Counted from the stretch's first letter, positions 6,966 to 51,584 are shown. The stretch is DNA of 64,000 nucleotides from Candidatus Rokuibacteriota bacterium (GCA_900299425.1 OMJU01000060.1:39773-103772); one strand, 5' to 3'. Notes: generated from the sequence alone by a model not told the origin. Program-made: numbers and translations.

Positions 6966-7016
6966 AAGAATTAATTTTTGAGGTACGCGACCTCGGTTAT
7001 AATTTTTTAGAGGCGG

Positions 7017-15280: not shown

Positions 15281-15354
15281 GGTCTGGTAGTTCAGTTGGT
15301 TAGAATACCTGCCTGTCACGCAGGGGGTCGCGAGTTCGAGTCTCGTCCAGACCG
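15281..15354 (+). tRNA. tRNA-Asp (anticodon GTC)
   Basis: Acceptor stem GGTCTGG/CCAGACC, anticodon loop CTGTCAC, T-arm GGTCGCGAGTTCGAGTCTCGT. 74 nt, with no encoded CCA. Confidence 0.92.
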
Positions 15355-15416
15355 CAACAAAGAGGTTGTGTTGGCAGCTTAAATGCTGCAAGTGGTTTAG
15401 CAATAGACCAATGAGA

Positions 15417-22753: not shown

Positions 22754-22835
22754 GCGGCTGTGATGGAATTGGTAGACATGCTAGACTTAGGATCTAGTGC
22801 CGCAAGGCGTGGGGGTTCGACTCCCTTCAGCCGCA
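22754..22835 (+). tRNA. tRNA-Leu (anticodon TAG)
   Basis: Acceptor stem GCGGCTG/CAGCCGC, anticodon loop CTTAGGA, a long variable arm and T-arm GGGGGTTCGACTCCC. 82 nt. Confidence 0.9.
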
Positions 22836-22837
22836 CA

Positions 22838-37949: not shown

Positions 37950-38963
37950 TTAATATCTTCTGCTATAGGATAGCGAGACGTACAAGTGGGGCTCCGCTGT
38001 GCGATTACGGGCCGATTCGTAGTGATATTTCAGATAGACATCATTGCGTTTATAGCGCCAAAAAAAGCCGACGTTAAAAAAGTACATCATTCTGTACGGG
38101 GTTACGGTAAATGATGAATTGTCCCCAAGCCAATTGCCTTGTAGCATCGCATCGTGCAAGACATAGCGATATCCAAATCGCGTCGAAAAAAAAAGTTCGG
38201 TTTCTCGGCCTAGCATTTGACCATAAGCCATAGTCTTTTGTAGGGTGGAGCGCCGTCCAAAATAAAACACCGCATCTTGCGCGACATAGGCATCTTTGGT
38301 GCCCAGTGAGGCCTTGGGATTAAGGGCAAAGTATACGGCAAAGGGTTTTGGCTGCCACTCCCATTCACGCACATACTCATAGTAGGTATTGAAATGAAAA
38401 CTATTGTCTATTTGAGAAAGCCAAGTGGCAATTTTAGAATCTACGGTGGCCGAATTGTGGAAAGCGCTTTGTACGGTTTCTGAACCCGAATATGGGCCGG
38501 CAATACCAAATACAAAATTGTAGCGATTCAGGTGATTGGCCCGCGTTACGGTTAGCCCATTATTCAACCCAATAAACCCTGCGTAGGGTCGATCCATAAA
38601 CTTTATTTTATCAGTCAACAGGTCAGTTGGGGTAAAGATTTCTTGATACAGAATCAGACTGTATTGACGTGTCTGCTTTTGTTCAAGCTGACTGGGTGTT
38701 AAGGGTAACCATCTGTGGAGTCCGAGAAAACTGCCCGTGGAGTAATACCGATCCGTAAAATGTAGAAAATCATTGTCCTGGCGGAGTTCAAATTGATCCA
38801 AGTAATCCGGTGTCCAATCGCTCGATTCTATTGTCAATTCAGGCTCGGCTTCAGCATCTGTGGCTTTCGAAGATTGTTCGGTAACTAGTCCCAAAGATTG
38901 TCCTGAAACCATTGGGGAAATTACCATCAACAAAAGCGTTATAAGTGGACTGATTTTGATCAT
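37950..38963 (-). CDS. LpxR-like (DUF2219) outer-membrane lipid A deacylase family protein
   Basis: Signal peptide. RQDNDFLHFTDRYYSTG resembles the NDxxxxxDRxYTxG block of LpxR/DUF2219, and the composition is beta-barrel-like ending in ...SYSRRY. Confidence 0.5.
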   Translation of the reverse strand: MIKISPLITLLLMVISPMVSGQSLGLVTEQSSKATDAEAEPELTIESSDWTPDYLDQFELRQDNDFLHFTDRYYSTGSFLGLHRWLPLTPSQLEQKQTRQYSLILYQEIFTPTDLLTDKIKFMDRPYAGFIGLNNGLTVTRANHLNRYNFVFGIAGPYSGSETVQSAFHNSATVDSKIATWLSQIDNSFHFNTYYEYVREWEWQPKPFAVYFALNPKASLGTKDAYVAQDAVFYFGRRSTLQKTMAYGQMLGRETELFFSTRFGYRYVLHDAMLQGNWLGDNSSFTVTPYRMMYFFNVGFFWRYKRNDVYLKYHYESARNRTAEPHLYVSLSYSRRY

Positions 38964-38970
38964 GCTGCTG

Positions 38971-40473
38971 TCATATCTTTGACCCGGTAAAAATACTTTT
39001 TATAAACAGATAACCGAAACCAAGCACGCAAAGCAAATGAAAGGGCGCCAAACCAAAGTCTCCGTTAGGGCCCATTTGGCTGGCTAATAAAATCCCGAAA
39101 ATACCATAAATCATTAACGAAAATTCCAAAGCAGCAGGGAAGAACTGCCCCCCCGAGGAATAATTAGCCCATGGCTTAGTCCCCCGATTTCGTTTATCGG
39201 CTCCAGCATTGAATTTTGGGGTCCGTACAAATGGCGTGACCACACCTAGATGGCCTTGTAGGACCGCAATTGCATTGTTTGCACAAAGCCCTATGGCCAG
39301 TGTGAAAAAGATGATAAAATCAACTAATGCAGCAGGCCAGGAGACGTTCTGTGCTGTGTTAATGAGTTTGTACGACCCGGTGTAAGCCCACATTAGGAGC
39401 AATGTGGTGAGCCCGAAAATTTGAAATAAATAAAAAATCCAAGTCCATCCAGGATGGCTATTTTTAATCCAGAGCAGCGGCACACTCAATACGATAAGCA
39501 GCAGTACCAGAAAAAACAATGAGCTGCTGAATAAGTGGGCCGTCCCAAAGAGTTTTTCTTTAAAGCTTATTTCTTTATTTCGCCAAAGTGGGCGCCAAAG
39601 CAGTTTGAAATTTTGGGCCCCTCCTTTATTCCATCTGAATTGTTGTCCCCTTGCTGCTTGCACGGTTTGAGGAAGTTCGGCCGGAGTTATGATGTCGGGA
39701 CGATAGACAATCTCCCAACCCTTGAGCTGGGCACGATAGCTCAGATCTAAATCTTCAGTTAAGGTGGTTCCGGACCAATTGCCGGCATCTTCGATACAGG
39801 ATTTGCGCCAAATACCTGCAGTTCCATTGAAATTCATAAAAACACCACTGGCTTGTCGGCCCATTTGTTCAAGACTGAAATGTAAATCCAAGGCAAAGGC
39901 TTGTACCCGCGTCAAAATCGAAGTTTTGCGGTTAATATGGCCCCAACGCGTTTGGACCACACCTATTTTTGCATCATTAAAATAGGGCATACTGCGCAAC
40001 AGCCAATCCCTTTGCGGCAGGAAATCTGCGTCGAAAATGGCGATGAATTCGCCCTTGGCTTGGGTTAAGCCAGCTTTTAATGCCCCGGCCTTAAAGCCAT
40101 CTCTGTTGTTTCTTTTTAGATGAATCATCTCAATACCCCGAGCAGAAAACTCAGCAACCAAGGTCTGTACAAGGGCAGAAGTGTCATCCGTAGAATCATC
40201 CAAAACCTGAATATCCAATCGATCTCGAGGATATTCTATGGCCGCGACATGCTCGAGCAGCGCCTGAACAACATTTTGCTCGTTATAGAGAGGCAGTTGA
40301 ATGGTTACCCGAGGTAAATGGTCATTGAGGCTGAAGGCCGAAAGCTCATTTTTGATCACTTGACTACGCGCTTCCCGGAATTTAAGAAACAGGAAAACTT
40401 GCGTTATGGCAAAAAGCAATACTGTCAAAAGGCAAATAGCATAAATTAGGACGATGACGACTTCCCAGATCAT
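38971..40473 (-). CDS. Processive family-2 glycosyltransferase (cellulose-synthase/CslA-like) with multiple TM segments
   Basis: QLPLYNE, DDSTD, FDADF, TEDLDLS and the QxxRW motif (QQFRWNKGG), with N- and C-terminal TM helices. 500 aa. Confidence 0.8.
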   Translation of the reverse strand: MIWEVVIVLIYAICLLTVLLFAITQVFLFLKFREARSQVIKNELSAFSLNDHLPRVTIQLPLYNEQNVVQALLEHVAAIEYPRDRLDIQVLDDSTDDTSALVQTLVAEFSARGIEMIHLKRNNRDGFKAGALKAGLTQAKGEFIAIFDADFLPQRDWLLRSMPYFNDAKIGVVQTRWGHINRKTSILTRVQAFALDLHFSLEQMGRQASGVFMNFNGTAGIWRKSCIEDAGNWSGTTLTEDLDLSYRAQLKGWEIVYRPDIITPAELPQTVQAARGQQFRWNKGGAQNFKLLWRPLWRNKEISFKEKLFGTAHLFSSSLFFLVLLLIVLSVPLLWIKNSHPGWTWIFYLFQIFGLTTLLLMWAYTGSYKLINTAQNVSWPAALVDFIIFFTLAIGLCANNAIAVLQGHLGVVTPFVRTPKFNAGADKRNRGTKPWANYSSGGQFFPAALEFSLMIYGIFGILLASQMGPNGDFGLAPFHLLCVLGFGYLFIKSIFTGSKI

Positions 40474-41180
40474 TTGAAAATGGCGTGTTTGGCAATCCAG
40501 CCAATAATTTTCACTCCGGCAAAGATAACACCTTTTATAGTCCCGGAGACTTTGGACACACCGATGCGATTTCTGTACGGAACCTTTATTTCTGTGTAAT
40601 TGAGTTTCATCCTAAGGGCCTTTAGCTGCATTTCAACGGTCCATCCATAAGTCATATCTGACATCTTCATGGCCATGAGTTGATCGTAGCGGATGGCCCT
40701 AAATGGTCCTAAATCGGTATAGCGTGCTGCGAATAAGTGACGCATAAGCCAGGTTGCTAGGCCGTTACCAAAGCGCTGGGGCAGGGTCATGGCCCCTGGC
40801 TCCATCAGCTCAGGAGCGCGTGCACCAATGACCAAGTCCATATTTAGATTTTGGATTGGGTCTATTAGTGTCTCGAGATACTCGGGATAATCACTGTAAT
40901 CTCCATCGAGAAACACAATTATATCTGGAGTTTGTTCGGGCTGTTTGGCTCTTCTTTCTTGGAGGTATTCCAAAGCGTGCATGCAAGCGAAGCCATAGCC
41001 ACGGCGGGACTCCTCTAAGACCAAAGCGCCGTGTTTTTGAGCCACTTCCATCGTGTTGTCTATCGAACCATTATCCACTACAATTACCTCTGCCACTGTT
41101 TTTGGGATATCATCCAAAACAAGCCCAATGGCTTCAGCCTCATTAATAGCAGGAATAATTACCGTGATTTTTGGGCCCAA
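40470..41180 (-). CDS. Family-2 glycosyltransferase (polyprenyl-phosphate glycosyltransferase-like)
   Basis: VIIPAINEAEAI, VVDNGSIDNT and FLDGDYSD (DxD) motifs. TTG start. It overlaps the downstream GT2 by 4 bp. Confidence 0.75.
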   Translation of the reverse strand: MGPKITVIIPAINEAEAIGLVLDDIPKTVAEVIVVDNGSIDNTMEVAQKHGALVLEESRRGYGFACMHALEYLQERRAKQPEQTPDIIVFLDGDYSDYPEYLETLIDPIQNLNMDLVIGARAPELMEPGAMTLPQRFGNGLATWLMRHLFAARYTDLGPFRAIRYDQLMAMKMSDMTYGWTVEMQLKALRMKLNYTEIKVPYRNRIGVSKVSGTIKGVIFAGVKIIGWIAKHAIFK

Positions 41181-41188
41181 AATAATTC

Positions 41189-41602
41189 TTATTTGGCCTC
41201 TAATTCGAGTTGCTGTTGGGGTACAATATAGGCGTCAAAATACCAAGAGGAAAACTCCTCAAGTCCTATAAACAAGAGTATCCCTAGGATGATGATCAAG
41301 GCCCCAACTAAAAGCAAATTAAGTTGTTTGCGTCTGGGATCAATCGAGCACTGATCTTGGGTTGTTTTATACTTGTAGATACCATAAGCTCCAATTAAAA
41401 CTGCCATTACGCGAAGCAATATAGCCCCTGTGCCTAGAGAACCATCTTCTTGATAAAAAAAGTCGGCAAATGAAATGGCCACCACACCGCCCATAAGCCC
41501 AAGCATAAATAGCACAGCCGGGGCAACGCAGCATAAAATGCCTGCTAATGCAGACATGAGTCCATATTTAAGGGTCCATTTAAAAATACTGGGAGTCTTC
41601 AT
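41189..41602 (-). CDS. Small 4-TM membrane protein with a vicinal Cys pair in TM1 (MerT-like CC motif)
   Basis: 137 aa. GILCCVAPAVLFMLG lies in the first TM helix, and one more Cys (DQCS) lies in a loop. Confidence 0.55.
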   Translation of the reverse strand: MKTPSIFKWTLKYGLMSALAGILCCVAPAVLFMLGLMGGVVAISFADFFYQEDGSLGTGAILLRVMAVLIGAYGIYKYKTTQDQCSIDPRRKQLNLLLVGALIIILGILLFIGLEEFSSWYFDAYIVPQQQLELEAK

Positions 41603-41619: not shown

Positions 41620-42372
41620 CTAAGTTACTGATTTTTTAGGGGTGTTTTGCCATACATTTCTTTGGTAATAGGCCCAAAGCTCCTGTGGTGAATGGTCTTG
41701 ACGGTATTTGTATTGAATGACCCAAAAGTGCCATTGCAATTGCCAGAGCCCTCGTTCGTTATATTTACGCGCTGAACTGATTACCTTTTGGGGCAGGACC
41801 CTAAAATGAGTCCGGGCATAAAGCCGATCAATCAAATGAAGGTCCTCGCAGATGATATATTCTGGGGCATAGCCACCGATACCCTCGAACAGAGCTTTAC
41901 GGACAAAAAGGCTTTGATCCCCACCACGGCAGAATTGCCATTTAAAGCGTGTACCCCAGCCAGCGAGTTTCATCCACCAATGCTTTGAGTCAAAAGCCAT
42001 GCGAAAGCAGCCAGCCTCATGTTTAGGTTCTGTATTTTCGATTATGAGCTGATCGTAGTTTTGGGGCGCCAGGGTGTCCGCATGAATAAAATAAAGAATC
42101 TCGCCGCGGGCGCTTGATGCCCCCAAATTCATTTGACGGGCTCTGCCTGCCGGGCCCTCCAGCAAATAAAGCCTGTGCTGAGGATGATTTTCTTGCCAAT
42201 GGCGTATCAAAGTTTGGGTTTGGTCACCACTGCCCCCATCTACAACAATCAGTTCTATTTGTTCGGGATCAAAGGCGCGATTGATCAGTGCCTCAAGGGT
42301 AACAATGATGTTCTGATCCTCATTGAGCGTAGGAATGATCACCGAAAGTTGTGGTGTCTTGCTCTGGATCAT
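41620..42372 (-). CDS. GT2 glycosyltransferase, TIGR04283-like (arsenosugar-cluster-associated)
   Basis: LSVIIPTLNE, VVDGGSGDQT and FIHADT motifs. The ATG at 42372 is preferred over the TTG at 42396, which would overlap DUF547 by 19 bp. Confidence 0.7.
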   Translation of the reverse strand: MIQSKTPQLSVIIPTLNEDQNIIVTLEALINRAFDPEQIELIVVDGGSGDQTQTLIRHWQENHPQHRLYLLEGPAGRARQMNLGASSARGEILYFIHADTLAPQNYDQLIIENTEPKHEAGCFRMAFDSKHWWMKLAGWGTRFKWQFCRGGDQSLFVRKALFEGIGGYAPEYIICEDLHLIDRLYARTHFRVLPQKVISSARKYNERGLWQLQWHFWVIQYKYRQDHSPQELWAYYQRNVWQNTPKKSVT

Positions 42373-42377
42373 AGTGT

Positions 42378-43079
42378 TTAGTTGTTTAAAGACCAATCAT
42401 AGGATAAATAACTGATGGCAATTTTTGATGAAAAATTTTGACTTGTGTATTGATTGATCAAATTAACGAGGGCTTCAGAATTGCCAAAATCTCCTTTGAA
42501 CCACATAAAAATTCGCGAGAGATAAAGACGCTTTGTAGAGTAATTATTTTTTGAGCGGTCATTCAAAAATGTAGCCGCCGATCGATTGAGTTGTTCCTCA
42601 AGTTTATGCCCCTGGTAGGCCTCATTGGCCAGTATGGGACAAGATTTTGAGGCACAATTGATGGCAAAATGGATGCGTGGTTCGCCGAACTTTCTCAATA
42701 TCTCGTGTTCGATTTCATCTAGGGTCCAACGATTATTTTTATGCGTAAGCACGGTCTGCTTCCACGGACGGCTTATGTCCTTGATGCTCTCTAGCGGGAG
42801 GTTGTCGCAAATTAATTTCACTGTACAGGCATTGTAGGCATTGATCCAAAACGCGAGTTGTTGGGCTTTGGTTTGGGTATTAATCTTCTCAGTGGATTGA
42901 GCCAGCGATTCAATATAGGCTTCAAGTTTTGATCTATCCTTTTGAAATCCTTGATAATCGACACGGCCCTGTGGGCTGACATATTGCTGTAACAAAGCGT
43001 TCCAAGACTGATGATTGACCTCAGAAGTTTGGGCATTGAGTCCACAGCAAATCAGAAAAATGGTCCAGAGTAACTTCAT
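42378..43079 (-). CDS. DUF547 domain protein, exported
   Basis: Signal peptide MKLLWTIFLICCGLNAQ, with conserved AFWINAYNA and HFAINCASKSCP blocks of DUF547. Confidence 0.75.
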   Translation of the reverse strand: MKLLWTIFLICCGLNAQTSEVNHQSWNALLQQYVSPQGRVDYQGFQKDRSKLEAYIESLAQSTEKINTQTKAQQLAFWINAYNACTVKLICDNLPLESIKDISRPWKQTVLTHKNNRWTLDEIEHEILRKFGEPRIHFAINCASKSCPILANEAYQGHKLEEQLNRSAATFLNDRSKNNYSTKRLYLSRIFMWFKGDFGNSEALVNLINQYTSQNFSSKIAISYLSYDWSLNN

Positions 43080-43088
43080 GGTTTAAAC

Positions 43089-44057
43089 TCAGCAACATCC
43101 ACCTCCGTCATAGTGGAAGGTCGATAGGCTAATAAAAATATCTGATCGGTTTAAGGCTGCTAATGCAGCAGCGGTCTTGTCACATACAGCCAGTGGTTGA
43201 TTGGGCATCAGGACATGTCCTTTTTTGTCGTCAAAATATGGCTGGTCTCCATAGTAAATGGCGGCTTTACCCGTAAAGACACAGGGGCCATCTTCCGGCA
43301 TGGGGTCCTTAATAGCAGCGACTTCAATGGACTCAATATAAATGAGCTCCTGGGTTGGATAATGAGCAGGGTCCAGAATGCGGTACGGTTTTCTGGCGCG
43401 AATCTCGATGGTCCCAAATCCAGCGTCGGTCAAGGCTTTGACGTATTGATTTATGGGCAAACTCCCGCTCAGGCAAAGCGCTCTTAGACGTTCATCCTCT
43501 CTCAATGTTTGGTTCATTTCTTGTTCACATGTCGGGTCACTCATCACCAAGCGACCATGGGGTTTCAGGACACGATACATCTCCGCAATGGCCTCTTTTA
43601 GATCTTGATCTTTAAAAATGTTGAACAAGCAGTTTTGTGCAGCAACATCGATAGTCTCATTCTCTACAGGAAGATTCATGGCATCTCCATGACGCAGTGA
43701 TACAAAATCCGAGGAAAACCATGGATTTTGTTCTTCAGCTTCTTTAAAGTTTTTGCGGGAGGCTTCCAGCATTTCTTCGACCACGTCCACCCCGATGATA
43801 TTTCCTTTTTCTCTCGAAAAGTAGGCAAATTGAAGCAACTCCATACCACCACCTACGCCTACATACAGAATCTTTGGGTTGCGGCTTAAATCTCTGGGGT
43901 GCACTGTTGATCCGCATCCATAGTTCATCTCTTGCATGATTTTTGGGATACGCAGTCCGGGCAATTCCCAAATCGGATTAGTAGTACAGCACAATCCTAT
44001 ATCCGGGGTTTCTGCTGCTTTTTTATAGACGTCTTTAGTAGTTTCTAAATAACTCAT
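43089..44057 (-). CDS. arsM: Arsenite S-adenosylmethionine methyltransferase, arsenosugar-cluster type
   Basis: N-terminal GLCCTT and YGCGS Cys blocks, SAM motif ILYVGVGGGMEL and a C-terminal Cys pair (GGGCC). It sits next to the ArsS-type radical SAM gene. Confidence 0.75.
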   Translation of the reverse strand: MSYLETTKDVYKKAAETPDIGLCCTTNPIWELPGLRIPKIMQEMNYGCGSTVHPRDLSRNPKILYVGVGGGMELLQFAYFSREKGNIIGVDVVEEMLEASRKNFKEAEEQNPWFSSDFVSLRHGDAMNLPVENETIDVAAQNCLFNIFKDQDLKEAIAEMYRVLKPHGRLVMSDPTCEQEMNQTLREDERLRALCLSGSLPINQYVKALTDAGFGTIEIRARKPYRILDPAHYPTQELIYIESIEVAAIKDPMPEDGPCVFTGKAAIYYGDQPYFDDKKGHVLMPNQPLAVCDKTAAALAALNRSDIFISLSTFHYDGGGCC

Positions 44058-44884
44058 AAGGATAAACGCTCAATTAAAATATTAAATAACTCAACCATTT
44101 TGGGTTCTGCCTTTTTAGCACTGGCAATGATATCACTGATGTCCACTGGTGCTAGGTTGTCTGGATCACATTCGTCCGTTAGCACAGAAACAGCCGCGAC
44201 GGGTAAACTCAGGTGGTTGGCTACTATGATTTCGGGAACCGTACTCATACCCACAGCATCGCCTCCTATAAGTCTTAAAAACCTGTACTCAGCTTTGGTT
44301 TCTAGTTCAGGCCCACGCACACCAATGTACACTCCTTGATGCAATCCAATGCCGCGCTCATTGGCGATTGTCAAGAGCTCGGTACACATTCCTGGGTCAT
44401 AAGGTGTATTGAGGTCCACAAAGCGCTGTCCCATTTGATCGACTCCTTTAAAAGCCAGAGGGGAACTGCCTTGCAAATTAATATGGTCAGTGATGAGCAT
44501 CATCTCACCCTTTTTATAATCTAAGTTTAAGGCGCCTGAGGCATTGCTTACCAGCAAACGCTTGATCCCCAAGGCATGCATCACCCTTATCGGAAAAGTA
44601 ACTTCCTCTGGACTGTACCCTTCATAAAGATGAAATCTGCCCTGCATGACCACTACTTTCTTCCCCCCTAAATCTCCATATATGAGTTTTCCTTGATGAA
44701 ATTCTACGGTCGCAGTCGGAAAATGAGGAATAGTCGTGTAATGCGCTTCCTTTTCTATCTGTACATCATCGACAAGTTCGCCCAGGCCTGTGCCCAGGAC
44801 AATGCCAATTTCTGGTTGGATGAATCCGCGGTCAAAAAGGAAGGATCGGGCGTCTTCAACTTGCTGTATGAGTTTTGGTTTCAT
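44054..44884 (-). CDS. Purine nucleoside phosphorylase (trimeric PNP/MTAP family)
   Basis: GIVLGTGLG, MQGRFHLYEGY, VSNASGALN and GMSTVPEI blocks. It has 4-bp overlaps with both neighbours. Confidence 0.85.
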   Translation of the reverse strand: MKPKLIQQVEDARSFLFDRGFIQPEIGIVLGTGLGELVDDVQIEKEAHYTTIPHFPTATVEFHQGKLIYGDLGGKKVVVMQGRFHLYEGYSPEEVTFPIRVMHALGIKRLLVSNASGALNLDYKKGEMMLITDHINLQGSSPLAFKGVDQMGQRFVDLNTPYDPGMCTELLTIANERGIGLHQGVYIGVRGPELETKAEYRFLRLIGGDAVGMSTVPEIIVANHLSLPVAAVSVLTDECDPDNLAPVDISDIIASAKKAEPKMVELFNILIERLSL

Positions 44885-45492
44885 GAAATCAGGGGTTTAA
44901 ATATTGCTTCTGGGTGTAAATCTTCTAATTCATCGATATCGTTTTTCTCTGTTAGAAGAAAAGGTAATTTTGGCTTTAAATTAATTAATGTGTCGTTGAA
45001 AACCGAGGAACTGCTCCAGTTTTTATTTTTGAATAGCTCTGAATTCATCTGAGTCATGCCGATGAGGTAATAACCGCCATCCTTAGCCGGACCGATGACT
45101 GTTTTATAGTGGTCTAAGGCCGTGAAAGCCTGATCAATTAATTCAGGATTTATATCGTATAAATCACTGCCGATGATGATTGCTTTTTTAGCCCCTTGTG
45201 CAAATGATGTTTTTAGTGCATTGGCCATACGTTCACCTAAATCAGCCCCACGTTGATGATCTTTGTGAAAATGAGCTGGGTCAAAGTGATCATTTTGTAA
45301 GATTTGGTGACTGTAAAAAACAATACGCTTTGCCGTTACTTGAGTGGTAACCTTTGCGGTATGTTCCAGAAGGAATTGATAAACTGCAAGTGCTTTTTCT
45401 GCCCCAATTGTCGCTGCCAAACGCGTTTTGCATTGCCCTAATACGGGGTTTTTACAAAAGATGATCAGGTGATTTGTACTGGATGGATTCAT
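44881..45492 (-). CDS. DUF2064 / TIGR04282-like GT-A-fold protein (arsenosugar-cluster-associated)
   Basis: LIIFCKNPVLGQCKTRLA is typical of the DUF2064 N-terminus. DGGYYLIGM is also present. ATG at 45492 is preferred over TTG at 45501. Confidence 0.7.
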   Translation of the reverse strand: MNPSSTNHLIIFCKNPVLGQCKTRLAATIGAEKALAVYQFLLEHTAKVTTQVTAKRIVFYSHQILQNDHFDPAHFHKDHQRGADLGERMANALKTSFAQGAKKAIIIGSDLYDINPELIDQAFTALDHYKTVIGPAKDGGYYLIGMTQMNSELFKNKNWSSSSVFNDTLINLKPKLPFLLTEKNDIDELEDLHPEAIFKPLIS

Positions 45493-45592
45493 AAGATTCA
45501 ATGCAAAGGGCTTACTTCATGCCACGCGCTTTAGAGGGTTTATTCACCAACATTTTACTATTCACTGGGTTAGGTTGCAGGTCTTTTAAAGG

Positions 45593-46093
45593 TTAAAACC
45601 GAGGGCTGCCTCCTTCAATATATTGAGCCCAGTGCTGATCATATCCGTGAATCTCTCGTGTAGGGCGCTGATCATTATCGATTATGGTTCGTCCTTGATT
45701 ATACCAAAGAAAAATACCGCCATAGAGATTGTAAACATTATGGTATCCCAGTTTTTTTAGTTTAACGCCTATTTGCTCTGAGCGCACACCAATAGAGCAA
45801 TAGACGATAATGGGGGTTGCTTTATCAAGATTTAAGGTCTTGAGTTTACTTTGATTAAATTCCTTATAGCCTATAAATTGTGCCTCGGGAAGATGAGAAA
45901 TGGTGAACTCTTTGGCACTACGTGTGTCTAAAAATACCACGCTGTCTTTTTGTTGCCATTGAGCGGCTGTCTTGGTGTCAATATAGGGAATGTCGCCAGA
46001 ATTATAACGCTTTAGCGCTTGATCAATGGGGCTTTGGGCCCATGATAATGCGGTAAAAAAAAGGATTACAAATATGGATAAAATAGGTCTCAT
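45593..46093 (-). CDS. Exported single-domain rhodanese (sulfurtransferase-type active-site loop)
   Basis: Signal peptide MRPILSIFVILFFTALSWAQS and active-site loop CSIGVRS (CxxGxR[ST]). The ATG at 46093 overlaps the arsS stop. Confidence 0.75.
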   Translation of the reverse strand: MRPILSIFVILFFTALSWAQSPIDQALKRYNSGDIPYIDTKTAAQWQQKDSVVFLDTRSAKEFTISHLPEAQFIGYKEFNQSKLKTLNLDKATPIIVYCSIGVRSEQIGVKLKKLGYHNVYNLYGGIFLWYNQGRTIIDNDQRPTREIHGYDQHWAQYIEGGSPRF

Positions 46094-47157
46094 GTTACTG
46101 CTCCTTGACAACTGCTTCCGGCCCCTGCGGTGCATCCATAGCAGTGTTGTGAAATTTTAATCAATCGGCCTTGCATCAGGTCATTTTCATATTCAGCGAT
46201 ATGTTGTCTTTTATCGTTAATGGGTAATTGTAACATTTGGTTGAAGTCGCAATCATAGAGAAAACCATCCCAAGAGACCGATAAAGTATTGAGACACATC
46301 ACTGCACGAGCTGCCGAAGGATTAAAGGAGTCCACCAGAGTCCACATATAATTTTCGTAATTATCCGAGGCAATCAAGTAGTCAAGAAACCTGGAAATCG
46401 GCAAATTAGTCAATGCAAAAAGTCCATTGAACTTGATGGCAAAGCTTTGATCGAGCCGTTGTTTGAAATCTTGACAAAGGGCCTCTTGATTTCCGGGCAA
46501 GAAGGCACCGCTGGGATTGTACACTAAATCTAAAACAAGGGCACTATCTGGCATGCCATAGCCCACAATGTTCAGCATCTTTAATGCTTTTATGGAATCT
46601 TCAAAAACACCCGAGCCACGTTGTCTGTCTGTTTTTTCTTTGGTCCAATGAGGCATACTGCTGACCACATGCACCTTATGCTTGGCAAAAAATTCAGGTA
46701 AATCGTGATATTTTTTATTGGCGACAATTATGGTGAGATTACTGCGCACGATAATTTCTTGAACACCTCGGGCCTTGGCCTCGGAGACAAACCAACGGAA
46801 ATTTGGATTCATTTCCGGGGCCCCTCCAGTAAGGTCTAAAGTTTTTACCCCACTGGATTCCATGACCTTGAGACAATGTTCCATAGTTTCTTTTGTCATG
46901 ATTTCTTTACGGTCGGGACCAGCATCTACATGACAGTGTGCGCAAACCTGATTGCACATATAACCCAAATTGATTTGAATGATATCTAGCTGGGTTGTTT
47001 TTAATGGACCGCCGAGTGTCTGATGAATTTTTTCGCCAAATTTCGGCGCCTGACCATCGGCAAAAATCCCCTGTTCTAAAATTTGTAGTTGGCGCTCAGT
47101 TTCGGCAAGAGGGCTTTGTCGCTTGTGCAGAGATTGTAAGGATTTAATTTGACTCAT
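46090..47157 (-). CDS. arsS: Arsenosugar biosynthesis radical SAM protein ArsS-type (radical SAM/Cys-rich family)
   Basis: CNQVCAHC (CX3CX2C) and a C-terminal Cys-rich block QHCYGCTAGAGSSCQG. 355 aa. Confidence 0.75.
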   Translation of the reverse strand: MSQIKSLQSLHKRQSPLAETERQLQILEQGIFADGQAPKFGEKIHQTLGGPLKTTQLDIIQINLGYMCNQVCAHCHVDAGPDRKEIMTKETMEHCLKVMESSGVKTLDLTGGAPEMNPNFRWFVSEAKARGVQEIIVRSNLTIIVANKKYHDLPEFFAKHKVHVVSSMPHWTKEKTDRQRGSGVFEDSIKALKMLNIVGYGMPDSALVLDLVYNPSGAFLPGNQEALCQDFKQRLDQSFAIKFNGLFALTNLPISRFLDYLIASDNYENYMWTLVDSFNPSAARAVMCLNTLSVSWDGFLYDCDFNQMLQLPINDKRQHIAEYENDLMQGRLIKISQHCYGCTAGAGSSCQGAVT

Positions 47158-47163
47158 TGCAAA

Positions 47164-47493
47164 CTATGAATCCAATTTATTGACCTTGTTCATCATCATC
47201 ACCCCGTGGACCAAACTAGCCCCACTTTTTATCGCAGCGCCCACGTGCACAGCCTCCATCATTTCCTGCTTTGTGATCCCACGTTCAAGGCCATCTTTGG
47301 TGTAGGCGTCGATACAATAGGGGCACATTTCTGTATGGGCCACCGCCAAGGCAATTAGAGATTTTTCGCGCGGAGTTAGCGCCCCGTCTTGAAAAACGCT
47401 GTTGTAATAATCAAAGAATTTTTCTCCAAGGGACTCACTCCAATCAGTGATGCGCCCAAATTTGCGCAGGTCTTTTGGGTCATAATAGGACAT
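47164..47493 (-). CDS. AhpD/carboxymuconolactone-decarboxylase-fold, arsenosugar-associated peroxidase-like protein
   Basis: 109 aa with the CPYC motif inside HTEMCPYCIDAYTK. It lies 6 bp upstream of arsS. Confidence 0.7.
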   Translation of the reverse strand: MSYYDPKDLRKFGRITDWSESLGEKFFDYYNSVFQDGALTPREKSLIALAVAHTEMCPYCIDAYTKDGLERGITKQEMMEAVHVGAAIKSGASLVHGVMMMNKVNKLDS

Positions 47494-47513
47494 AGTTGTA
47501 AACTTTAGAATTT

Positions 47514-47547
47514 AAATCGTTACCGATTCAAGAATTTAAAGATACAA
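47514..47547. promoter_or_regulatory. Direct-repeat / palindrome / direct-repeat element upstream of the arsenosugar array
   Basis: agaatttaaa occurs at 47514-47523 and 47538-47547, flanking aatcg-ttac-cgatt (47522-47535). The element lies 21-54 nt upstream of the ATG at 47493. Confidence 0.3.
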
Positions 47548-47623: not shown

Positions 47624-49273
47624 TCAGCTGAAGTAAATGTATATAGCCGCTACAAGCAAAACAATTAAAGCTCCGATGGGTTTGGTATAAGCCCAGGGCT
47701 TAATGTCTACCTGCTTGGTGTACTCTTGCACATAAGCTACCTCACGTGGGTAAAGCTTACCAATCAGGAGCATAATCAGTACGTTGAGCACAAAAAGTAT
47801 GGCCATAACATCGAGGTAGTGCAGTCCGAAATAGCCTTGAGACTCTATAACTGAGAGCGCGGCAGGGTCTGTGATGCCTTGGGCTTTTGCCGCAGCTAGA
47901 GCCTCACCCACAAAGTGTGGTTTTAAAAAGAACTGACTCAATATGTAGAGTAATGACCCGGAAAGCAACCCTATTTTCGCCGCAATGGCAGGGACTCTTT
48001 TGGTCAGAAATCCTACTACAATAATGGTTAAAATAGGAATCGAATAAATACCGTTGATCTCCTGTAAATAGTCAAAAAGGCTGCCTGCGTTAGCGATAAA
48101 TGGAGCAATAATCATGGCACCAATAGCCAAGGCGATACCAAAGATCTTTCCTTTACTCACGACCGTGGCTTCGTCGGCCTGGGGGTTGATGTGCTGTTTA
48201 TAAATATCTACCCCAAATAAGGTCACCGAACTATTTAAAACACTATTAAATGAACTCAAAATTGCCCCAAAGATGACCGCTGCAAAAAATCCGAGCAAGG
48301 CAGGGGGAAGGACTGCTGCAACGAGTTGGGGGTAAGCCTGATCGACTGAGCTGAGATTTGGAAACATATGATAGGCGATAATTCCTGGGAGGACTACGAT
48401 GATAGGTCCGAGAATTTTTATAAACGAGCCTAAAAGCAGTCCTTTTTGGCCTTCTAATAGGTTTTTTGCACCAAGCGCGCGTTGAATAATTTGTTGGTTT
48501 GTACCCCAGTAAAAGAGCTGTACGAGCATCATTCCCGTGAAAATGGTATAAAAGGGAACAGGGTCAGTACGCTGCCCCATAGACTTTAATTTATCGGGAT
48601 GTTCAGTGGCTAAAACCGATAAGCCATCTAAAATACTGCCCTCTCCGATGGCCATAAGCCCAAGAACAGGGATCAAAAGCCCACCGACCAATAGGCCAAT
48701 GGCGTTAATGGTGTCGGAAACTGCCACTGCTTTTAATCCGCCAAAAACGGCATAAACCGAACCGACCAGCCCAATCCCCCAAACACAGAGGTAGATGGCC
48801 TGAGTGTCCGAGACACCAAAAGCCTTTGGAATGTCAAACATACCGCTTATGGCGACTGAACCGGAATAGAGTATTACAGGCAACAAGACTACCACATAAC
48901 CCGTTAAAAATAACGCTGAGGTGATTGTTTTGGTGGTGGTGTCAAAGCGATTGGCCAAAAATTGTGGTACTGTGGTCAGTCCTCCTTTGAGATAACGGGG
49001 CAATAAAAATAGAGCCGTGACCACCATCGCAATTGCAGCAAGGCTTTCCCAAGCCATAACCGAAAGACCGCTTTCGTAAGCTGATCCATTAAGCCCCACT
49101 ATTTGTTCTGTGGAGAGATTGGTCAACAACAATGATCCTGCGATCACTCCAGCAGTAAGACTGCGGCCCCCTAGAAAATACCCATCGGCACTTTTTTCAT
49201 CTGTTTTTCTCGAGGCCAAATAGGCAATGATGGCAACTAGTGCGGTAAATGCTATGAATGAAATTATGGTCAT
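47624..49273 (-). CDS. Sodium:solute symporter (SSF/SGLT family)
   Basis: 549 aa with about 13-14 TM segments. The N-terminus ADGYFLGGRSL is typical of the SSF family. Confidence 0.85.
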   Translation of the reverse strand: MTIISFIAFTALVAIIAYLASRKTDEKSADGYFLGGRSLTAGVIAGSLLLTNLSTEQIVGLNGSAYESGLSVMAWESLAAIAMVVTALFLLPRYLKGGLTTVPQFLANRFDTTTKTITSALFLTGYVVVLLPVILYSGSVAISGMFDIPKAFGVSDTQAIYLCVWGIGLVGSVYAVFGGLKAVAVSDTINAIGLLVGGLLIPVLGLMAIGEGSILDGLSVLATEHPDKLKSMGQRTDPVPFYTIFTGMMLVQLFYWGTNQQIIQRALGAKNLLEGQKGLLLGSFIKILGPIIVVLPGIIAYHMFPNLSSVDQAYPQLVAAVLPPALLGFFAAVIFGAILSSFNSVLNSSVTLFGVDIYKQHINPQADEATVVSKGKIFGIALAIGAMIIAPFIANAGSLFDYLQEINGIYSIPILTIIVVGFLTKRVPAIAAKIGLLSGSLLYILSQFFLKPHFVGEALAAAKAQGITDPAALSVIESQGYFGLHYLDVMAILFVLNVLIMLLIGKLYPREVAYVQEYTKQVDIKPWAYTKPIGALIVLLVAAIYIYFS

Positions 49274-49302
49274 GGGTTGTAGTTTACGGTTAGTTTATAA
49301 AG

Positions 49303-50268
49303 TTAATCATTTAATATGTCTGAGATAACGTCGGCATAATCCGGTATACGCCCCACATTTTGAAGTTTTATGGCCGCCATTTGAAGTGCCGAAGAAAGAC
49401 ATTTTTCAGGGCTTTGACCTTTGATGTGTCCGTAAAGAAATCCACTCCAAAAAGCATCACCTGCGCCAGTGGCATCCATGATTTTTTCGACTTTTAATGC
49501 GGAGAGCTGCATGACATCAGAACCGCTTGCGCTCAGTTTGGCTCCGTCTTTACCCAGGGTAAAACAGATTATTTTGGCCCCCAGTCCGTGTAAATAATCG
49601 AAAACTTCTTTATGGCTGAGGCCTGGGCCTAACAGTCGATCGACATCGTCTTGACTTATTTTCACCAGCGGACCGTGTTTGCAGTAACGGGCGATGGCCT
49701 CCATAGCTTGTTCACGATTCGGCCAAATTTTTTCACTGTAATTGATGTCAATACTGAGTTGTACCCCTTGCTCGGCTGCACGCTCGGCCGTAGAGAGAAT
49801 TGTTTCCCGAGCGGGCTCCATACTTAAGGCAAAACAAGTGGTGTGATATACTTTACTTGAGCTCAGTAAAGACTCTGGAATTTGGGCAGGATAAATTTCT
49901 TTATCGGCTCCGCGATAAGCAATAAATTCGGGAGTCCCTGCTGTGTTATTTATGAAAATTACAGTACTCGGGATTTTCTCAGCGCGATAAACATGGCGCG
50001 TGTCTATGCCTGCCTCTTCCAAGCGGCTCAGCATATAATCGCCAAAACCATCGTCCCCAATACTAGAAATCATGACCACATTCATCCCTAGTCTTGCTAT
50101 ATTCATGGCTACATTGGTTGGGGAGCCTCCTAGATATCTGTGATAATCTTTGGTTTCATTTATTGGCGCTTCAACCTGGGCTCCTATAAAATCAATTAAA
50201 GTCTCTCCGATACAAATTATATCTGTCTCAGGCGTGTTGCCGTGCTTCATGTCGGGCTGTGAATTCAT
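49303..50268 (-). CDS. PfkB-family carbohydrate kinase (fructokinase-like)
   Basis: GGSPTNVAMN and DATGAGDAFWSGFLYG signatures. 321 aa. Confidence 0.8.
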   Translation of the reverse strand: MNSQPDMKHGNTPETDIICIGETLIDFIGAQVEAPINETKDYHRYLGGSPTNVAMNIARLGMNVVMISSIGDDGFGDYMLSRLEEAGIDTRHVYRAEKIPSTVIFINNTAGTPEFIAYRGADKEIYPAQIPESLLSSSKVYHTTCFALSMEPARETILSTAERAAEQGVQLSIDINYSEKIWPNREQAMEAIARYCKHGPLVKISQDDVDRLLGPGLSHKEVFDYLHGLGAKIICFTLGKDGAKLSASGSDVMQLSALKVEKIMDATGAGDAFWSGFLYGHIKGQSPEKCLSSALQMAAIKLQNVGRIPDYADVISDILND

Positions 50269-50276
50269 CGAATCAG

Positions 50277-51584
50277 TTATGATTTAATGGATGCTTTGGG
50301 CTTAAGTCTCATGGCCAAAACGGCCGCAATTACAAAGAAAACACCCCCAAAAAGTATGGCATTTGTGGCACTTCCTCCCAAAAGATGTTTCATGATTGGT
50401 CCGAAGGTGAGCGTTTCGATACCCATTGGGATTACAATCATCATATTCAAAATACCCATATATACCCCACGACGATCTTGTGGGACAATTTTAGATACCA
50501 TACTGTATGGGATGCCCATCATGGCAGCCCAGCCAATTCCGAATAAAATCATGGGAAATAAAACAGTTATCGGGTCAGTTATAAAAGGAATGGCTAAAAG
50601 TGCAGCGCCAGTGCCGAATAAACTGCCTGCATAAGTTTTCTTGCCTCCAAAGCGCATGGTAATTGGTACCAGCAAAAGTGCGACGATTATGGTTGTAATG
50701 TTATAGGTTGTACTCATTTTAGCAGCCTGACCTAAGGCTTGTCCTGGGTCAAATCCCATAGATTCATGAAAAAGAGGGGCTATATATTGCCAATAGACAA
50801 AAAGAGCATACCATTGAAAGAGGTAAACGCCAGAGAGTTGCCACATAAATTTTGGCATGAGTTTTACCGCCGAAACTATTTCATTAAAAGGAGTTTGAAG
50901 GCGTGTCAAAAAAGGTTCGCGGCGTTCGGCCTCAATGGCATTAAGTTCCTCTTCTGAGGGCGGGATTTCTGGGGTTTTCAATACGGACCACAAAATGGTA
51001 ACAACAGAGAGAATCGCCCCGAGGAAGAAAGAGTAATAAAGCCAAGTCGGGATACCATCATTTGTGCCTCCCGAAGGATCGGCAAACCAATCTTGAAAAA
51101 TAAAGATTGAGGCATTTGCCAATACAATACCCGCGCCGACAAATAGGCTCTGCATTTGATAGCCCATGGTTAGTTGTTTCTCAGGCAACTTATCGCCCAC
51201 AAATGCGCGGTAGGGCTCCATGGCCATATTGTTCCCCACATCGAGAATCCAAAGCAATCCCACGGCAAACCAAAGGCTCGGACTGTAAGGGAAGGCAAAA
51301 AGACAAAGGCTTCCAATCAAAGCACCGATCAGGAAATAGGGCTTTCTTCGGCCCCATTTGGGCGACCAGGTTTTGTCTGAAAGTGCACCAATTATGGGCT
51401 GCACTAAGAGGCCAGTCACTGGTCCTGCTAAATTTAAAATGGGTAATTCTTCCGGGAGTGCCCCTAGGAAAGAAAAAATAGGATTGATTGCTGTTTGTTG
51501 GAGTCCGAAGCTGAATTGAATGCCTAGGAAGCCGACATTCATGTTCCAGATATCCCAGAACGAGAGTTTAGGTTTTTTGGTCAT
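50277..51584 (-). CDS. MFS transporter (GPH/SLC45-like sugar:cation symporter)
   Basis: 435 aa with 12 TM segments. SDKTWSPKWGRRKPY is typical of the sucrose/SLC45-like subgroup. Confidence 0.8.
   Translation of the reverse strand: MTKKPKLSFWDIWNMNVGFLGIQFSFGLQQTAINPIFSFLGALPEELPILNLAGPVTGLLVQPIIGALSDKTWSPKWGRRKPYFLIGALIGSLCLFAFPYSPSLWFAVGLLWILDVGNNMAMEPYRAFVGDKLPEKQLTMGYQMQSLFVGAGIVLANASIFIFQDWFADPSGGTNDGIPTWLYYSFFLGAILSVVTILWSVLKTPEIPPSEEELNAIEAERREPFLTRLQTPFNEIVSAVKLMPKFMWQLSGVYLFQWYALFVYWQYIAPLFHESMGFDPGQALGQAAKMSTTYNITTIIVALLLVPITMRFGGKKTYAGSLFGTGAALLAIPFITDPITVLFPMILFGIGWAAMMGIPYSMVSKIVPQDRRGVYMGILNMMIVIPMGIETLTFGPIMKHLLGGSATNAILFGGVFFVIAAVLAMRLKPKASIKS

Follow-up and report, generated by a model that had tools for sequence, protein, structure and literature searches.

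Eight consecutive, tightly packed genes on the minus strand of the window (the whole 64-kb stretch of DNA that was analysed), at positions 41620-47493, may well constitute a Bacteroidota-type arsenosugar biosynthesis operon, a reading to which we assign a probability of about 0.58. The encoded proteins would act in the order ArsM, ArsS, purine nucleoside phosphorylase (PNP), CofC-like activation and GT2 transfer, and the PNP is a candidate 5'-deoxy-5'-dimethylarsinoyl-adenosine phosphorylase for the adenine-removal step. The open reading frames in the window bore out the eight minus-strand genes of the original prediction, both in coordinates and in spacing. The tight co-directional run continues for four genes past 41620, to 37950. 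In order of transcription, the features are:

47164..47493, minus strand: AhpD-like protein (TIGR04169, 'arsenosugar biosynthesis-associated peroxidase-like protein') with CPYC and AhpD fold, first gene of the run
46090..47157, minus strand: radical SAM protein ArsS (TIGR04167) with Radical_SAM and DUF3641 domains
45593..46093, minus strand: exported single-domain rhodanese (NF045521, 'rhoda_near_glyco'), alternative start 46135
44881..45501, minus strand: TIGR04282/DUF2064 protein with CofC-like nucleotide-diphospho-sugar transferase fold, alternative start 45492
44054..44884, minus strand: trimeric-type PNP (NF006054 match)
43089..44057, minus strand: arsenosugar-type As(III) SAM methyltransferase ArsM (NF038099)
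42378..43079, minus strand: exported DUF547 protein (PF04784) with invariant HFAINCAS-SCP
41620..42396, minus strand: GT2 (TIGR04283), start at 42372 according to gene callers
41189..41602, minus strand: 137-aa membrane protein whose helix 1 carries a vicinal Cys pair
40470..41180, minus strand: 236-aa GT2, polyprenyl-phosphate sugar transferase-like
38971..40473, minus strand: 500-aa membrane GT2 (Glyco_transf_21/PgaC-like)
37950..38963, minus strand: LpxR-family outer-membrane protein, with which the co-directional run ends

The AhpD-like and ArsS genes are 6 bp apart, and ArsS overlaps the rhodanese gene by 4 bp if the latter starts at the ATG chosen by the gene callers. The gap between the rhodanese and DUF2064 genes is 91-100 bp, depending on whether DUF2064 starts at 45492 or 45501, and 9 bp lie between ArsM and the DUF547 gene. 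All motifs quoted earlier for these proteins were found, namely CPYC, CNQVCAHC, CYGCTAGAGSSCQG (in ArsS), IIFCKNPVLGQCKTRLA (in the DUF2064/TIGR04282 protein), GLCC, YGCG and the C-terminal GGGCC, and NCASKSCP.

Profile searches placed seven of the eight proteins above curated NCBIfam cut-offs, including, as had been anticipated, ArsS, ArsM and the TIGR04169, TIGR04282 and TIGR04283 proteins; the eighth passed the Pfam model for DUF547. ArsS matched the TIGR04167 equivalog with 431.1 bits (cut-off 300) over profile positions 2-303 of 303, and also matched PF04055 and PF12345 (DUF3641, 176 bits). Its CX3CX2C motif consists of C68, C72 and C75, within CNQVCAHC. These three residues, C339 and C342 were invariant among 31 diverse homologues, and C350 was conserved in at least 90% of them. 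ArsM reached 568 bits with NF038099 (cut-off 400) in a match that spans the whole profile (positions 1-321 of 321), and its matches to Methyltransf_11, _25 and _31 indicate a class I SAM-binding fold. Its cysteines lie in GLCC (23, 24), YGCG (48), NCLFN (143) and LCLSG (195), sites that we take to correspond to C32, C61, C156 and C206 of AS3MT. The AhpD-like protein scored 178.7 bits with TIGR04169 (cut-off 120) and matched the Pfam CMD model. Its CPYC motif was invariant in 77 sequences, and its gene adjoins ArsS in 76 of 80 Bacteroidota loci. Fusions were found between ArsS and ArsM (in both orders), between ArsS and the AhpD-like CMD domain, and between TIGR04283 and TIGR04282 (locus L131), which ties these parts together independently of gene order.

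Conceivably, the cluster uses ArsS/ArsM-like chemistry on a non-arsenic substrate, for example selenium or another metabolite. The families were first grouped by association with selenoproteins, as the short names rSAM_SeCys and perox_w_seleSAM and the '(seleno)protein' descriptions recall. However, the ArsM score was obtained with an arsenosugar-specific exception model, the ArsS equivalog score is high, and none of the four ArsM-type cysteine motifs is missing. We consider a non-arsenic substrate very improbable, and the least probable of the alternatives weighed here.

The original prediction of a near-complete arsenosugar gene set holds as far as family membership is concerned, but the cluster is less unusual than it implied, since this cluster type is common (ArsS is present in at least 596 species genomes) and NCBI already names the core families "arsenosugar biosynthesis"; the gene set itself is not new. 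The same two core enzymes are found as SsArsM and SsArsS in Synechocystis sp. PCC 6803, where both steps were demonstrated (Xue et al., 2019; Cheng et al., 2021; both via PMC8552651 and PMC12159101). In contrast to Synechocystis, the window has the whole set in a single operon, in a heterotroph, a marine flavobacterium. The operon contains AhpD-like, TIGR04282 and TIGR04283 partners from the families with the NCBI arsenosugar name, and adds the PNP, the exported rhodanese (NF045521) and the exported DUF547 protein. Relatives of the operon further add an OlsE-like hydroxylase, a PiT permease and extra GT2s.

We inspected 80 Bacteroidota species loci for a PNP within 10 kb of arsS. One was present in 39 of the 80, compared with about 0.6 expected by chance; like the other neighbourhood statistics given here, this comparison disregards shared ancestry and truncated contigs. 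When both flanks had to extend for at least 8 kb, the fraction was 23 of 42. Among Flavobacteriales-like loci it was 22 of 31, and about 30% of well-flanked flavobacterial loci had no PNP near arsS. The rhodanese (28 of 80) and DUF547 (27 of 80) genes were also frequent near arsS, with less than one occurrence expected for a single-copy gene, so that the supposed neighbourhood enrichment of all three genes across Bacteroidota proved to be strong. Within these loci, tight coupling was seen between the PNP and TIGR04282 genes, not between PNP and arsM. A TIGR04282 gene lies directly upstream of PNP in 37-38 of the 39 PNP-bearing loci. Both genes were present in 38 loci, PNP alone in 1, TIGR04282 alone in 8, and neither in 33 (Fisher 9e-14), whereas co-occurrence of PNP with arsM was weak (p = 0.04). 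All 7 relatives picked solely by PNP similarity (67-100% identity) sit in such clusters.

The synteny might simply be inherited, with an ordinary purine-salvage enzyme having become fixed in the operon of an ancestor and playing no role in arsenic metabolism. No second PNP-family gene was seen within the 64-kb window, the link between PNP and arsS is restricted to one phylum, and the closest free-standing relatives, from Spirosoma and Planctomycetes, have the same key residues in housekeeping contexts. On the other hand, the PNP gene overlaps both of its neighbours, the DUF2064 and ArsM genes, by 4 bp. The adjacency to TIGR04282 is kept across several gene orders and orientations (L027, L060, L070, L072, L079, L087), outlasts inversions and a SusC/D insertion, and spans three orders of Bacteroidota, represented by Flavobacteriales, Chitinophagales and Chryseolinea. 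A single clade, marked by the motif TDECDPDNL, unites the cluster PNPs; it includes the Cytophagales member Chryseolinea and stands apart from the free-standing Cytophagales (Spirosoma) clade. Overall, we regard mere inheritance of a salvage gene as decidedly unlikely.

The PNP matched NF006054 (325.7 bits, cut-off 218) and TIGR01697 (280.7 bits, cut-off 197.1) over its full length, like other members of the trimeric (low-molecular-mass) PNP/MTAP family (PF01048), from which it differs by its embedding in a biosynthetic operon. The score for the inosine/guanosine-specific PNP I (TIGR01700) was 281.2 bits, below the equivalog cut-off of 293.35, and the protein has Asp where Asn would be expected for this type. 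Assignment as MTAP (TIGR01694) was also rejected (93.3 bits, cut-off 274.85), the window protein grouping with PNPs.

Residues were compared with human PNP by alignment. The phosphate and ribose ligands are retained (equivalents of human S33, H64, R84, H86, Y88, N115, A116, M219 and S220). Differences were seen at Asn243 (Asp), Phe200 (Leu) and the 5'-OH ligand His257 (Ile). The Asp at the Asn243 position occurs in the window PNP and in all 38 cluster PNPs, and also in MTAP; the His257 position is Ile, Leu or Val in cluster PNPs. The N243D exchange shifts human PNP towards adenosine. The alignment thus supports base and 5' pockets of a type that would be permissive for adenosine and 5'-substituted nucleosides. 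Since Asp and the non-His residue are also common to the free-standing PNPs of Spirosoma and Planctomycetes, these features are permissive rather than diagnostic and do not prove specialisation.

The same pockets would also suit 5'-deoxyadenosine. The PNP could therefore be a scavenger and not a pathway enzyme: it would dispose of the 5'-deoxyadenosine formed when ArsS cleaves SAM abortively, or of other by-products of the adenosine type from the three reactions that consume SAM. Inhibition by these products would thereby be lifted and adenine recovered. 5'-Deoxyadenosine is an inhibitor of radical SAM enzymes, and the PNP shares its operon with two SAM-dependent enzymes. However, the PNP tracks TIGR04282, and not arsS or arsM as such, and loci with only ArsS and the AhpD-like gene usually lack it. 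Moreover, the by-products in question also form in other phyla, and there neither PNP nor MTAP nor Pfs genes were enriched around ArsS. We judge scavenging to be unlikely, while giving it more weight than any other alternative. Among 61 more distant ArsS loci, there were no PNPs and one MTAP-like gene, indicating that the PNP link is confined to Bacteroidota and that the pathway does not universally include this enzyme. The proposal that PNP removes adenine is strengthened by the TIGR04282 coupling and the permissive pockets, and weakened by the restriction of the link to Bacteroidota and by residues that are not diagnostic.

It has also been considered that PNP might supply As(III), by arsenolysis of nucleosides to ribose-1-arsenate and subsequent reduction by thiols, standing in for ArsC. 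An 'arsenate reductase' activity of mammalian PNP in vitro is documented (Gregus and Nemeti, 2002; Radabaugh et al., 2002; via PMC12608789). The window cluster lacks arsC and contains thiol proteins (AhpD-like, rhodanese), and some related clusters have a PHO4/PiT phosphate (arsenate) permease. Nevertheless, in PMC12608789 reduction in vivo is described as not established, with Nemeti et al. (2003) cited as the test. The weak correlation of PNP with arsM, set against its very strong correlation with TIGR04282, also argues against such a role, and we consider it quite improbable.

The TIGR04282 protein scored 203.1 bits with its family model (cut-off 134) and 110 bits with PF09837 (DUF2064), and has an N-terminal K-x-P-x-x-G-x-x-K-T-R-L motif. 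Its closest known counterparts are CofC/MobA-like nucleotidyltransferases and PDB 3cgx, a putative nucleotide-diphospho-sugar transferase with DUF2064; it matched 3cgx with E 2.8e-24 and, weakly, CofC guanylyltransferase (E 3.9e-9), whereas the NCBI name for the protein is glycosyltransferase. Based on its coupling to PNP and the remote CofC similarity, we propose that it may be a sugar-1-phosphate activator (nucleotidyltransferase). The TIGR04283 GT2 (229.1 bits, cut-off 182, with a Glycos_transf_2 match) is found in 26 of the 80 ArsS loci.

The two exported proteins of the original prediction were corroborated by N-terminal signals conserved in 29 homologues of each. The rhodanese (NF045521, 173.3 bits, cut-off 145; active-site loop VYCSIGVRSE) has homologues with hydrophobic N-termini and a conserved catalytic Cys in VYCS-G-RSE. 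In homologues of the DUF547 protein (PF04784, 90.4 bits, cut-off 27), both cysteines are conserved, as are N-terminal signal peptides, some of them of the lipoprotein kind; a structure search found no solved relative. Across the 80 ArsS loci, both the rhodanese (Fisher 7e-7) and DUF547 (Fisher 4e-8) are associated with PNP.

Three of the four downstream genes are probable extensions of the operon. The 137-aa membrane protein shows weak MerTP-like similarity (E 6e-4) and occupies the same position in L006, L013 and L037. The 236-aa GT2 matched AglJ and dolichyl-phosphate hexose transferase models below their cut-offs. Orthologues (54-63% identical) occur in 9 of the 80 ArsS loci, and in L031 and L052 they directly follow PNP, replacing TIGR04283. 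The gene for the 500-aa GT2 shares 4 bp with the one before it and co-occurs with the 236-aa GT2 in 6 of the 80 loci, and in L006. Membership of the LpxR-family gene, assigned by PF09982 on an identical gene in L001, is uncertain; L006 alone has it at the corresponding position, and the 80 species loci do not have it there.

In the proposed pathway, ArsM would convert As(III) to dimethylarsenite, and the radical SAM enzyme ArsS would attach the 5'-deoxyadenosyl moiety of SAM to this product, yielding 5'-deoxy-5'-dimethylarsinoyl-adenosine, two steps shown elsewhere, in a cyanobacterium. Phosphorolysis by PNP would release adenine and 5-deoxy-5-dimethylarsinoyl-alpha-D-ribose-1-phosphate, which the CofC-like TIGR04282 protein could convert with an NTP to an NDP-sugar. 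The inverting GT2 (TIGR04283), or the downstream GT2s in some relatives, may then attach the sugar to an acceptor of the glycerol type or to a lipid; inverting transfer would give the beta-riboside configuration of natural arsenosugars. The CPYC AhpD-like protein probably contributes thiol redox chemistry around trivalent/pentavalent arsenic intermediates, and the exported rhodanese and DUF547 protein may carry out periplasmic thiol chemistry on arsenic or the product.

By analogy, the scheme would resemble fluorinase and chlorinase pathways, where SAM serves as scaffold and a pathway-encoded enzyme of the PNP family removes adenine to give a 5-substituted ribose-1-phosphate. The chlorinase pathway with SalL and SalT follows the same dedicated-PNP logic. 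In fluorometabolite biosynthesis, the dedicated PNP FlB phosphorolyses SAM-derived 5'-fluoro-5'-deoxyadenosine (PMC7541441). Unlike FlA/FlB, where halide is introduced by SN2 chemistry and isomerisation and aldol cleavage follow, the present pathway would introduce dimethylarsinoyl via radical SAM chemistry and continue with activation and glycosyl transfer. For adenine removal in arsenosugar biosynthesis, the accessible literature names only an as yet unassigned 'adenosyl nucleosidase' (PMC10456119). The operon PNP provides a testable candidate for this adenine-removal enzyme of the pathway.

The eight minus-strand open reading frames of the original prediction, which had read them as an arsenosugar-type gene set (ArsS and ArsM) with an embedded purine nucleoside phosphorylase (PNP), were all found at 41620-47493 of the window. 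Their spacing is as claimed, with overlaps of 4 bp and a largest gap of about 91-100 bp, and all the protein motifs quoted were recovered. Seven of the eight proteins exceeded the NCBI curated whole-protein cut-offs and the eighth passed that of Pfam DUF547, so that the eight-gene observation is real and confirmed.

Genes at 41620-47493 (-) in transcription order, with family model, score and cut-off
AhpD-like protein: TIGR04169, 178.7 bits, cut-off 120
ArsS: TIGR04167, 431.1 bits, cut-off 300
Rhodanese: NF045521, 173.3 bits, cut-off 145
DUF2064 protein: TIGR04282, 203.1 bits, cut-off 134
PNP, 44054-44884 (-): NF006054, 325.7 bits, cut-off 218
Arsenosugar ArsM: NF038099, 568 bits, cut-off 400
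DUF547 protein: Pfam DUF547, 90.4 bits, cut-off 27
GT2: TIGR04283, 229.1 bits, cut-off 182

Tight packing on the same strand extends past the GT2 gene down to 37950 (-) and takes in genes for a 137-aa membrane protein, two GT2s (one of 236 aa and a membrane-bound one of 500 aa) and a protein of the LpxR family. The 137-aa protein (41189-41602, minus strand) has a vicinal cysteine pair (C24, C25) in helix 1, matches MerTP-like proteins weakly (E 6e-4), and could bind or transport a thiophilic metalloid; it occupies the equivalent position in few relatives' loci only (L006, L013, L037). On the other side, 5' of the cluster and on the same strand (47624-51584), lie genes for a sodium:solute symporter, a PfkB sugar kinase and a GPH/MFS sugar transporter. 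This trio also precedes the cluster in L006, L016, L175 and L176, with a trehalase added in some, and is probably a separate sugar-uptake unit retained by synteny. Just 5' of the first gene's ATG, TTTAAATTCT occurs in two exact copies 24 bp apart (47531-47540 and 47507-47516, read on the minus strand); this 10-bp direct repeat was rejected as an operator, being absent as a conserved element from 75 related upstream regions. A sigma-70 promoter scan was uninformative, with matches rarer than in shuffled sequence; Bacteroidota promoters differ from the sigma-70 model.

Marine metagenome contigs carry genes identical to those of the window, an S16-Flavobacteria ribosomal leader is present at 6970-7003 (-) (40.6 bits vs a gathering score of 35.7), and the nearest named relatives of ArsS and PNP are Flavobacteriaceae. 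On these grounds the organism is an uncultured marine flavobacterium. The window also holds tRNA-Asp(GTC) at 15281-15355 (+) and tRNA-Leu(TAG) at 22754-22836 (+).

The ArsS family comprises 513 clusters at 50% identity (E <= 1e-30), and at least 596 ArsS loci were confirmed when each species was represented by a single genome. The ArsS, ArsM, AhpD-like, TIGR04282 and TIGR04283 families are already labelled "arsenosugar biosynthesis" by NCBI, and the gene set as such is of a known, annotated kind. That the cluster acts on a substrate other than arsenic is given very little credence. Natural fusions tie the functions of these proteins together independently of gene order: ArsS is fused to ArsM in both domain orders (proteins P0263, P0270, P0275, P0298, P0309) and to the AhpD domain (ArsS-CMD, P0297), and TIGR04283 to TIGR04282 (L131:3-1265). 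A flavobacterium had been presented as a non-classical producer; genomically it is not unusual. For experimental work on ArsM and ArsS function, the accessible papers cite Synechocystis as the sole organism (PMC8552651, PMC12159101).

Neighbourhoods were compared among the best 80 of the at least 596 species loci, ranked by similarity to the window's ArsS, and 10 kb to either side was included. All 80 are from Bacteroidota (Flavobacteriales, Chitinophagales, Cytophagales, Sphingobacteriales, Saprospiraceae), and their ORFs were assigned by BLASTP against the window proteins.

Genes found at the 80 ArsS loci
AhpD-like: 76
DUF2064: 49
PNP: 39
ArsM: 35
Rhodanese: 28
DUF547: 27
TIGR04283: 26
OlsE-like fatty-acid hydroxylase (none in the window): 15
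236-aa GT2: 9

A single-copy gene would be expected by chance in about 0.6 of 80 such neighbourhoods, and the predicted enrichment of PNP, rhodanese and DUF547 beside arsS is borne out by these counts, with statistics uncorrected for shared ancestry and truncated contigs. Where at least 8 kb of flank was available on both sides, PNP was present in 23 of 42 loci, and in 22 of the 31 Flavobacteriales-like ones. Across the 80 loci its closest partner was the TIGR04282-type gene (both in 38, PNP only in 1, TIGR04282 only in 8, neither in 33; Fisher 9e-14), and it was also associated with DUF547 (4e-8) and rhodanese (7e-7). Association with arsM was weak (p = 0.04), and this bears on the idea that the PNP serves as an arsenate reductase through arsenolysis, which predicts a PNP-arsM link. 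PNP arsenolysis is documented in vitro and may or may not matter in vivo (PMC12608789); we consider this role highly improbable.

A same-strand DUF2064 gene adjoins PNP in 37 of 39 loci, with a gap of no more than about 190 bp in all but one. The pair sits after arsM in Polaribacter (L027), lies on the opposite strand in L060, has the order PNP-DUF2064 in Parafilimonas and Chryseolinea (L070, L087), and remains intact in Aequorivita sublithincola although a SusC/D pair splits the cluster there. Such variety of arrangement speaks against pure inherited synteny, and it is unlikely that the PNP is a housekeeping enzyme merely fixed in place. PNP homologues picked by resemblance to the window's PNP alone (67-100% identity) fell within ArsS/DUF2064/DUF547/GT2 clusters in 7 of 7 cases. 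Besides the PNP-linked copy, several loci have a further DUF2064 paralogue directly after arsS: L029 (11135-11614), L028, L034, L035, L174 (6116-6793) and L009 (899-1585). This paralogue is divergent, with about 30% identity to the window protein; its aligned 160-aa fragment alone scores 104.5 bits against TIGR04282, below the cut-off of 134. The window has the PNP-linked type only.

A scan seeded with a distant ArsS gave 61 loci in which identity to the window ArsS is below 55%. Recurrent neighbours were the AhpD-like gene, arsM and TIGR04282/04283; a search for PNP, MTAP or Pfs genes near these 61 returned one MTAP-like gene, on the opposite strand, and no PNP or Pfs gene. This is a weak negative, as flanks of 5 kb or more to both sides are available for just 11 loci. 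Linkage to PNP is a Bacteroidota trait and not universal, and the PNP-TIGR04282 module, together with exported rhodanese and DUF547 proteins, defines a Bacteroidota variant. The searchable literature yielded no account of such a variant, and no open-access paper in which PNP is tied to the synthesis of arsenosugars or in which Flavobacteria are tied to these compounds.

In both the rhodanese and the DUF547 protein, cysteines are invariant and an N-terminal signal peptide, of the ordinary or the lipoprotein kind, is conserved; the conserved signals support the proposed periplasmic leg of the pathway, as predicted from sequence. A sequence search of the DUF547 protein against the PDB gave no match, and a single-sequence AlphaFold2 model of its fold was unusable (mean pLDDT 38).

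The window PNP is of the trimeric type and not an MTAP (93 bits vs the MTAP cut-off of 275), and falls slightly under the inosine/guanosine-specific equivalog cut-off (281.2 vs 293.35). It was aligned to human PNP, whose numbering is used for Asn243, Phe200 and His257. Phosphate and ribose ligands are kept. In the window PNP and all 38 cluster PNPs, Asn243, the 6-oxopurine-selecting position, is replaced by Asp, as in MTAP; Phe200 is Leu; and His257, the 5'-hydroxyl ligand, is Ile, Leu or Val, with the Val of MTAP aligned there. The N243D exchange pushes human PNP towards adenosine. This pattern is what a phosphorylase of a 5'-modified adenosine would need, and it is not cluster-specific. Asp243 plus Ile257 was rejected as a diagnostic of cluster PNPs, since PDB 4lna (Spirosoma), 4m1e (Planctomyces) and their relatives have the same key residues, and three such genes are free-standing in unrelated contexts (L091:10001-10816, L092:10001-10825, L093:10001-10822). 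Because these free-standing Spirosoma/Planctomycetes PNPs have Asp243 and no His257, the whole bacterial clade, 4lna and 4m1e types included, may take adenosine-type or 5'-modified substrates. In a neighbour-joining tree, a single clade with the motif TDECDPDNL unites the cluster PNPs from Flavobacteriales, Chitinophagales and Chryseolinea, apart from the Spirosomaceae clade, the Planctomycetes clade and the His-containing PNP 8swt; this is suggestive of a cluster-associated lineage but also compatible with species phylogeny. Such an active site would also suit scavenging of the by-product 5'-deoxyadenosine, but specific coupling to TIGR04282 does not fit that role, which we regard as doubtful.

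To our knowledge, the first two enzymes of arsenosugar biosynthesis are the only ones known, and the accessible literature assigns no enzyme to the steps after ArsS. In Synechocystis, according to the accessible papers, ArsM yields dimethylarsenite, which ArsS then adenosylates (PMC8552651, PMC12159101); removal of adenine has been attributed to an unidentified "adenosyl nucleosidase" (PMC10456119). Phosphorolysis of the arsenonucleoside by the PNP would release adenine and an alpha-ribose-1-phosphate analogue. A direct precedent for a pathway PNP on a SAM-derived 5'-substituted adenosine is FlB of fluorometabolite synthesis, which cleaves 5'-fluoro-5'-deoxyadenosine (PMC7541441). The TIGR04282 protein, whose gene is translationally coupled to that of the PNP, matches 3cgx of the PDB, a putative nucleotide-diphospho-sugar transferase, and has remote similarity to the guanylyltransferase CofC; it could convert the analogue into an NDP-sugar, from which an inverting GT2 would move the sugar to an acceptor, giving a beta-riboside. 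By established enzymology the chain would run from beta-nucleoside through alpha-1-phosphate and alpha-NDP-sugar to beta-glycoside, and it fits natural arsenosugars, which have the beta-configuration. The 236-aa and 500-aa GT2 genes probably belong to the system, because their orthologues directly follow PNP in Salegentibacter (L031, L052), replacing TIGR04283.

The original interpretation came through its computational checks on family scores and neighbourhood enrichment. We tentatively put at about 0.3 the probability that marine Flavobacteriia and other Bacteroidota possess a complete and self-contained pathway that turns arsenite into an arsenoriboside, either exported or bound to the membrane, via 5-deoxy-5-dimethylarsinoyl-ribose-1-phosphate made by a pathway PNP and an NDP-arsenosugar made by TIGR04282 for the GT2s.

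Related clusters carry further genes. The hydroxylase gene (PF04116) lies between arsM and DUF547 in its 15 clusters, for example L006:11807-12691, and also L008, L009, L011-L013, L016-L019 and L174-L176. Its product gives a weak, sub-cut-off match (77.7 bits) to OlsE, which hydroxylates ornithine lipids, and hints at a lipid-linked product in these relatives; no remnant of the gene was found within the window. A PHO4/PiT-family phosphate permease gene directly 3' of arsM in two flavobacterial relatives (L174:9915-10919, L175:9929-11038) is a plausible arsenate entry route. A GH113/GTA_TIM glycoside hydrolase gene follows TIGR04283 on the opposite strand in L008, L009, L174 and L176, with none in the window.

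Arsenosugars are the main arsenic species of marine algae and seafood-related food chains. The PNP-TIGR04282-GT2 module names three specific enzymes and predicts two intermediates, all open to direct testing, turning adenine removal and glycosylation into testable enzyme assignments, and culturable heterotrophs (Aequorivita, Mariniflexile, Winogradskyella, Polaribacter) are candidate genetic systems. If the complete route is true, the steps after ArsS would be filled in through newly described intermediates, and abundant heterotrophic bacteria would be overlooked producers of marine arsenosugars or arsenolipids. Should heterotrophic Bacteroidota produce arsenoribosides, estimates of how much organoarsenic is made in the sea would have to be revised.
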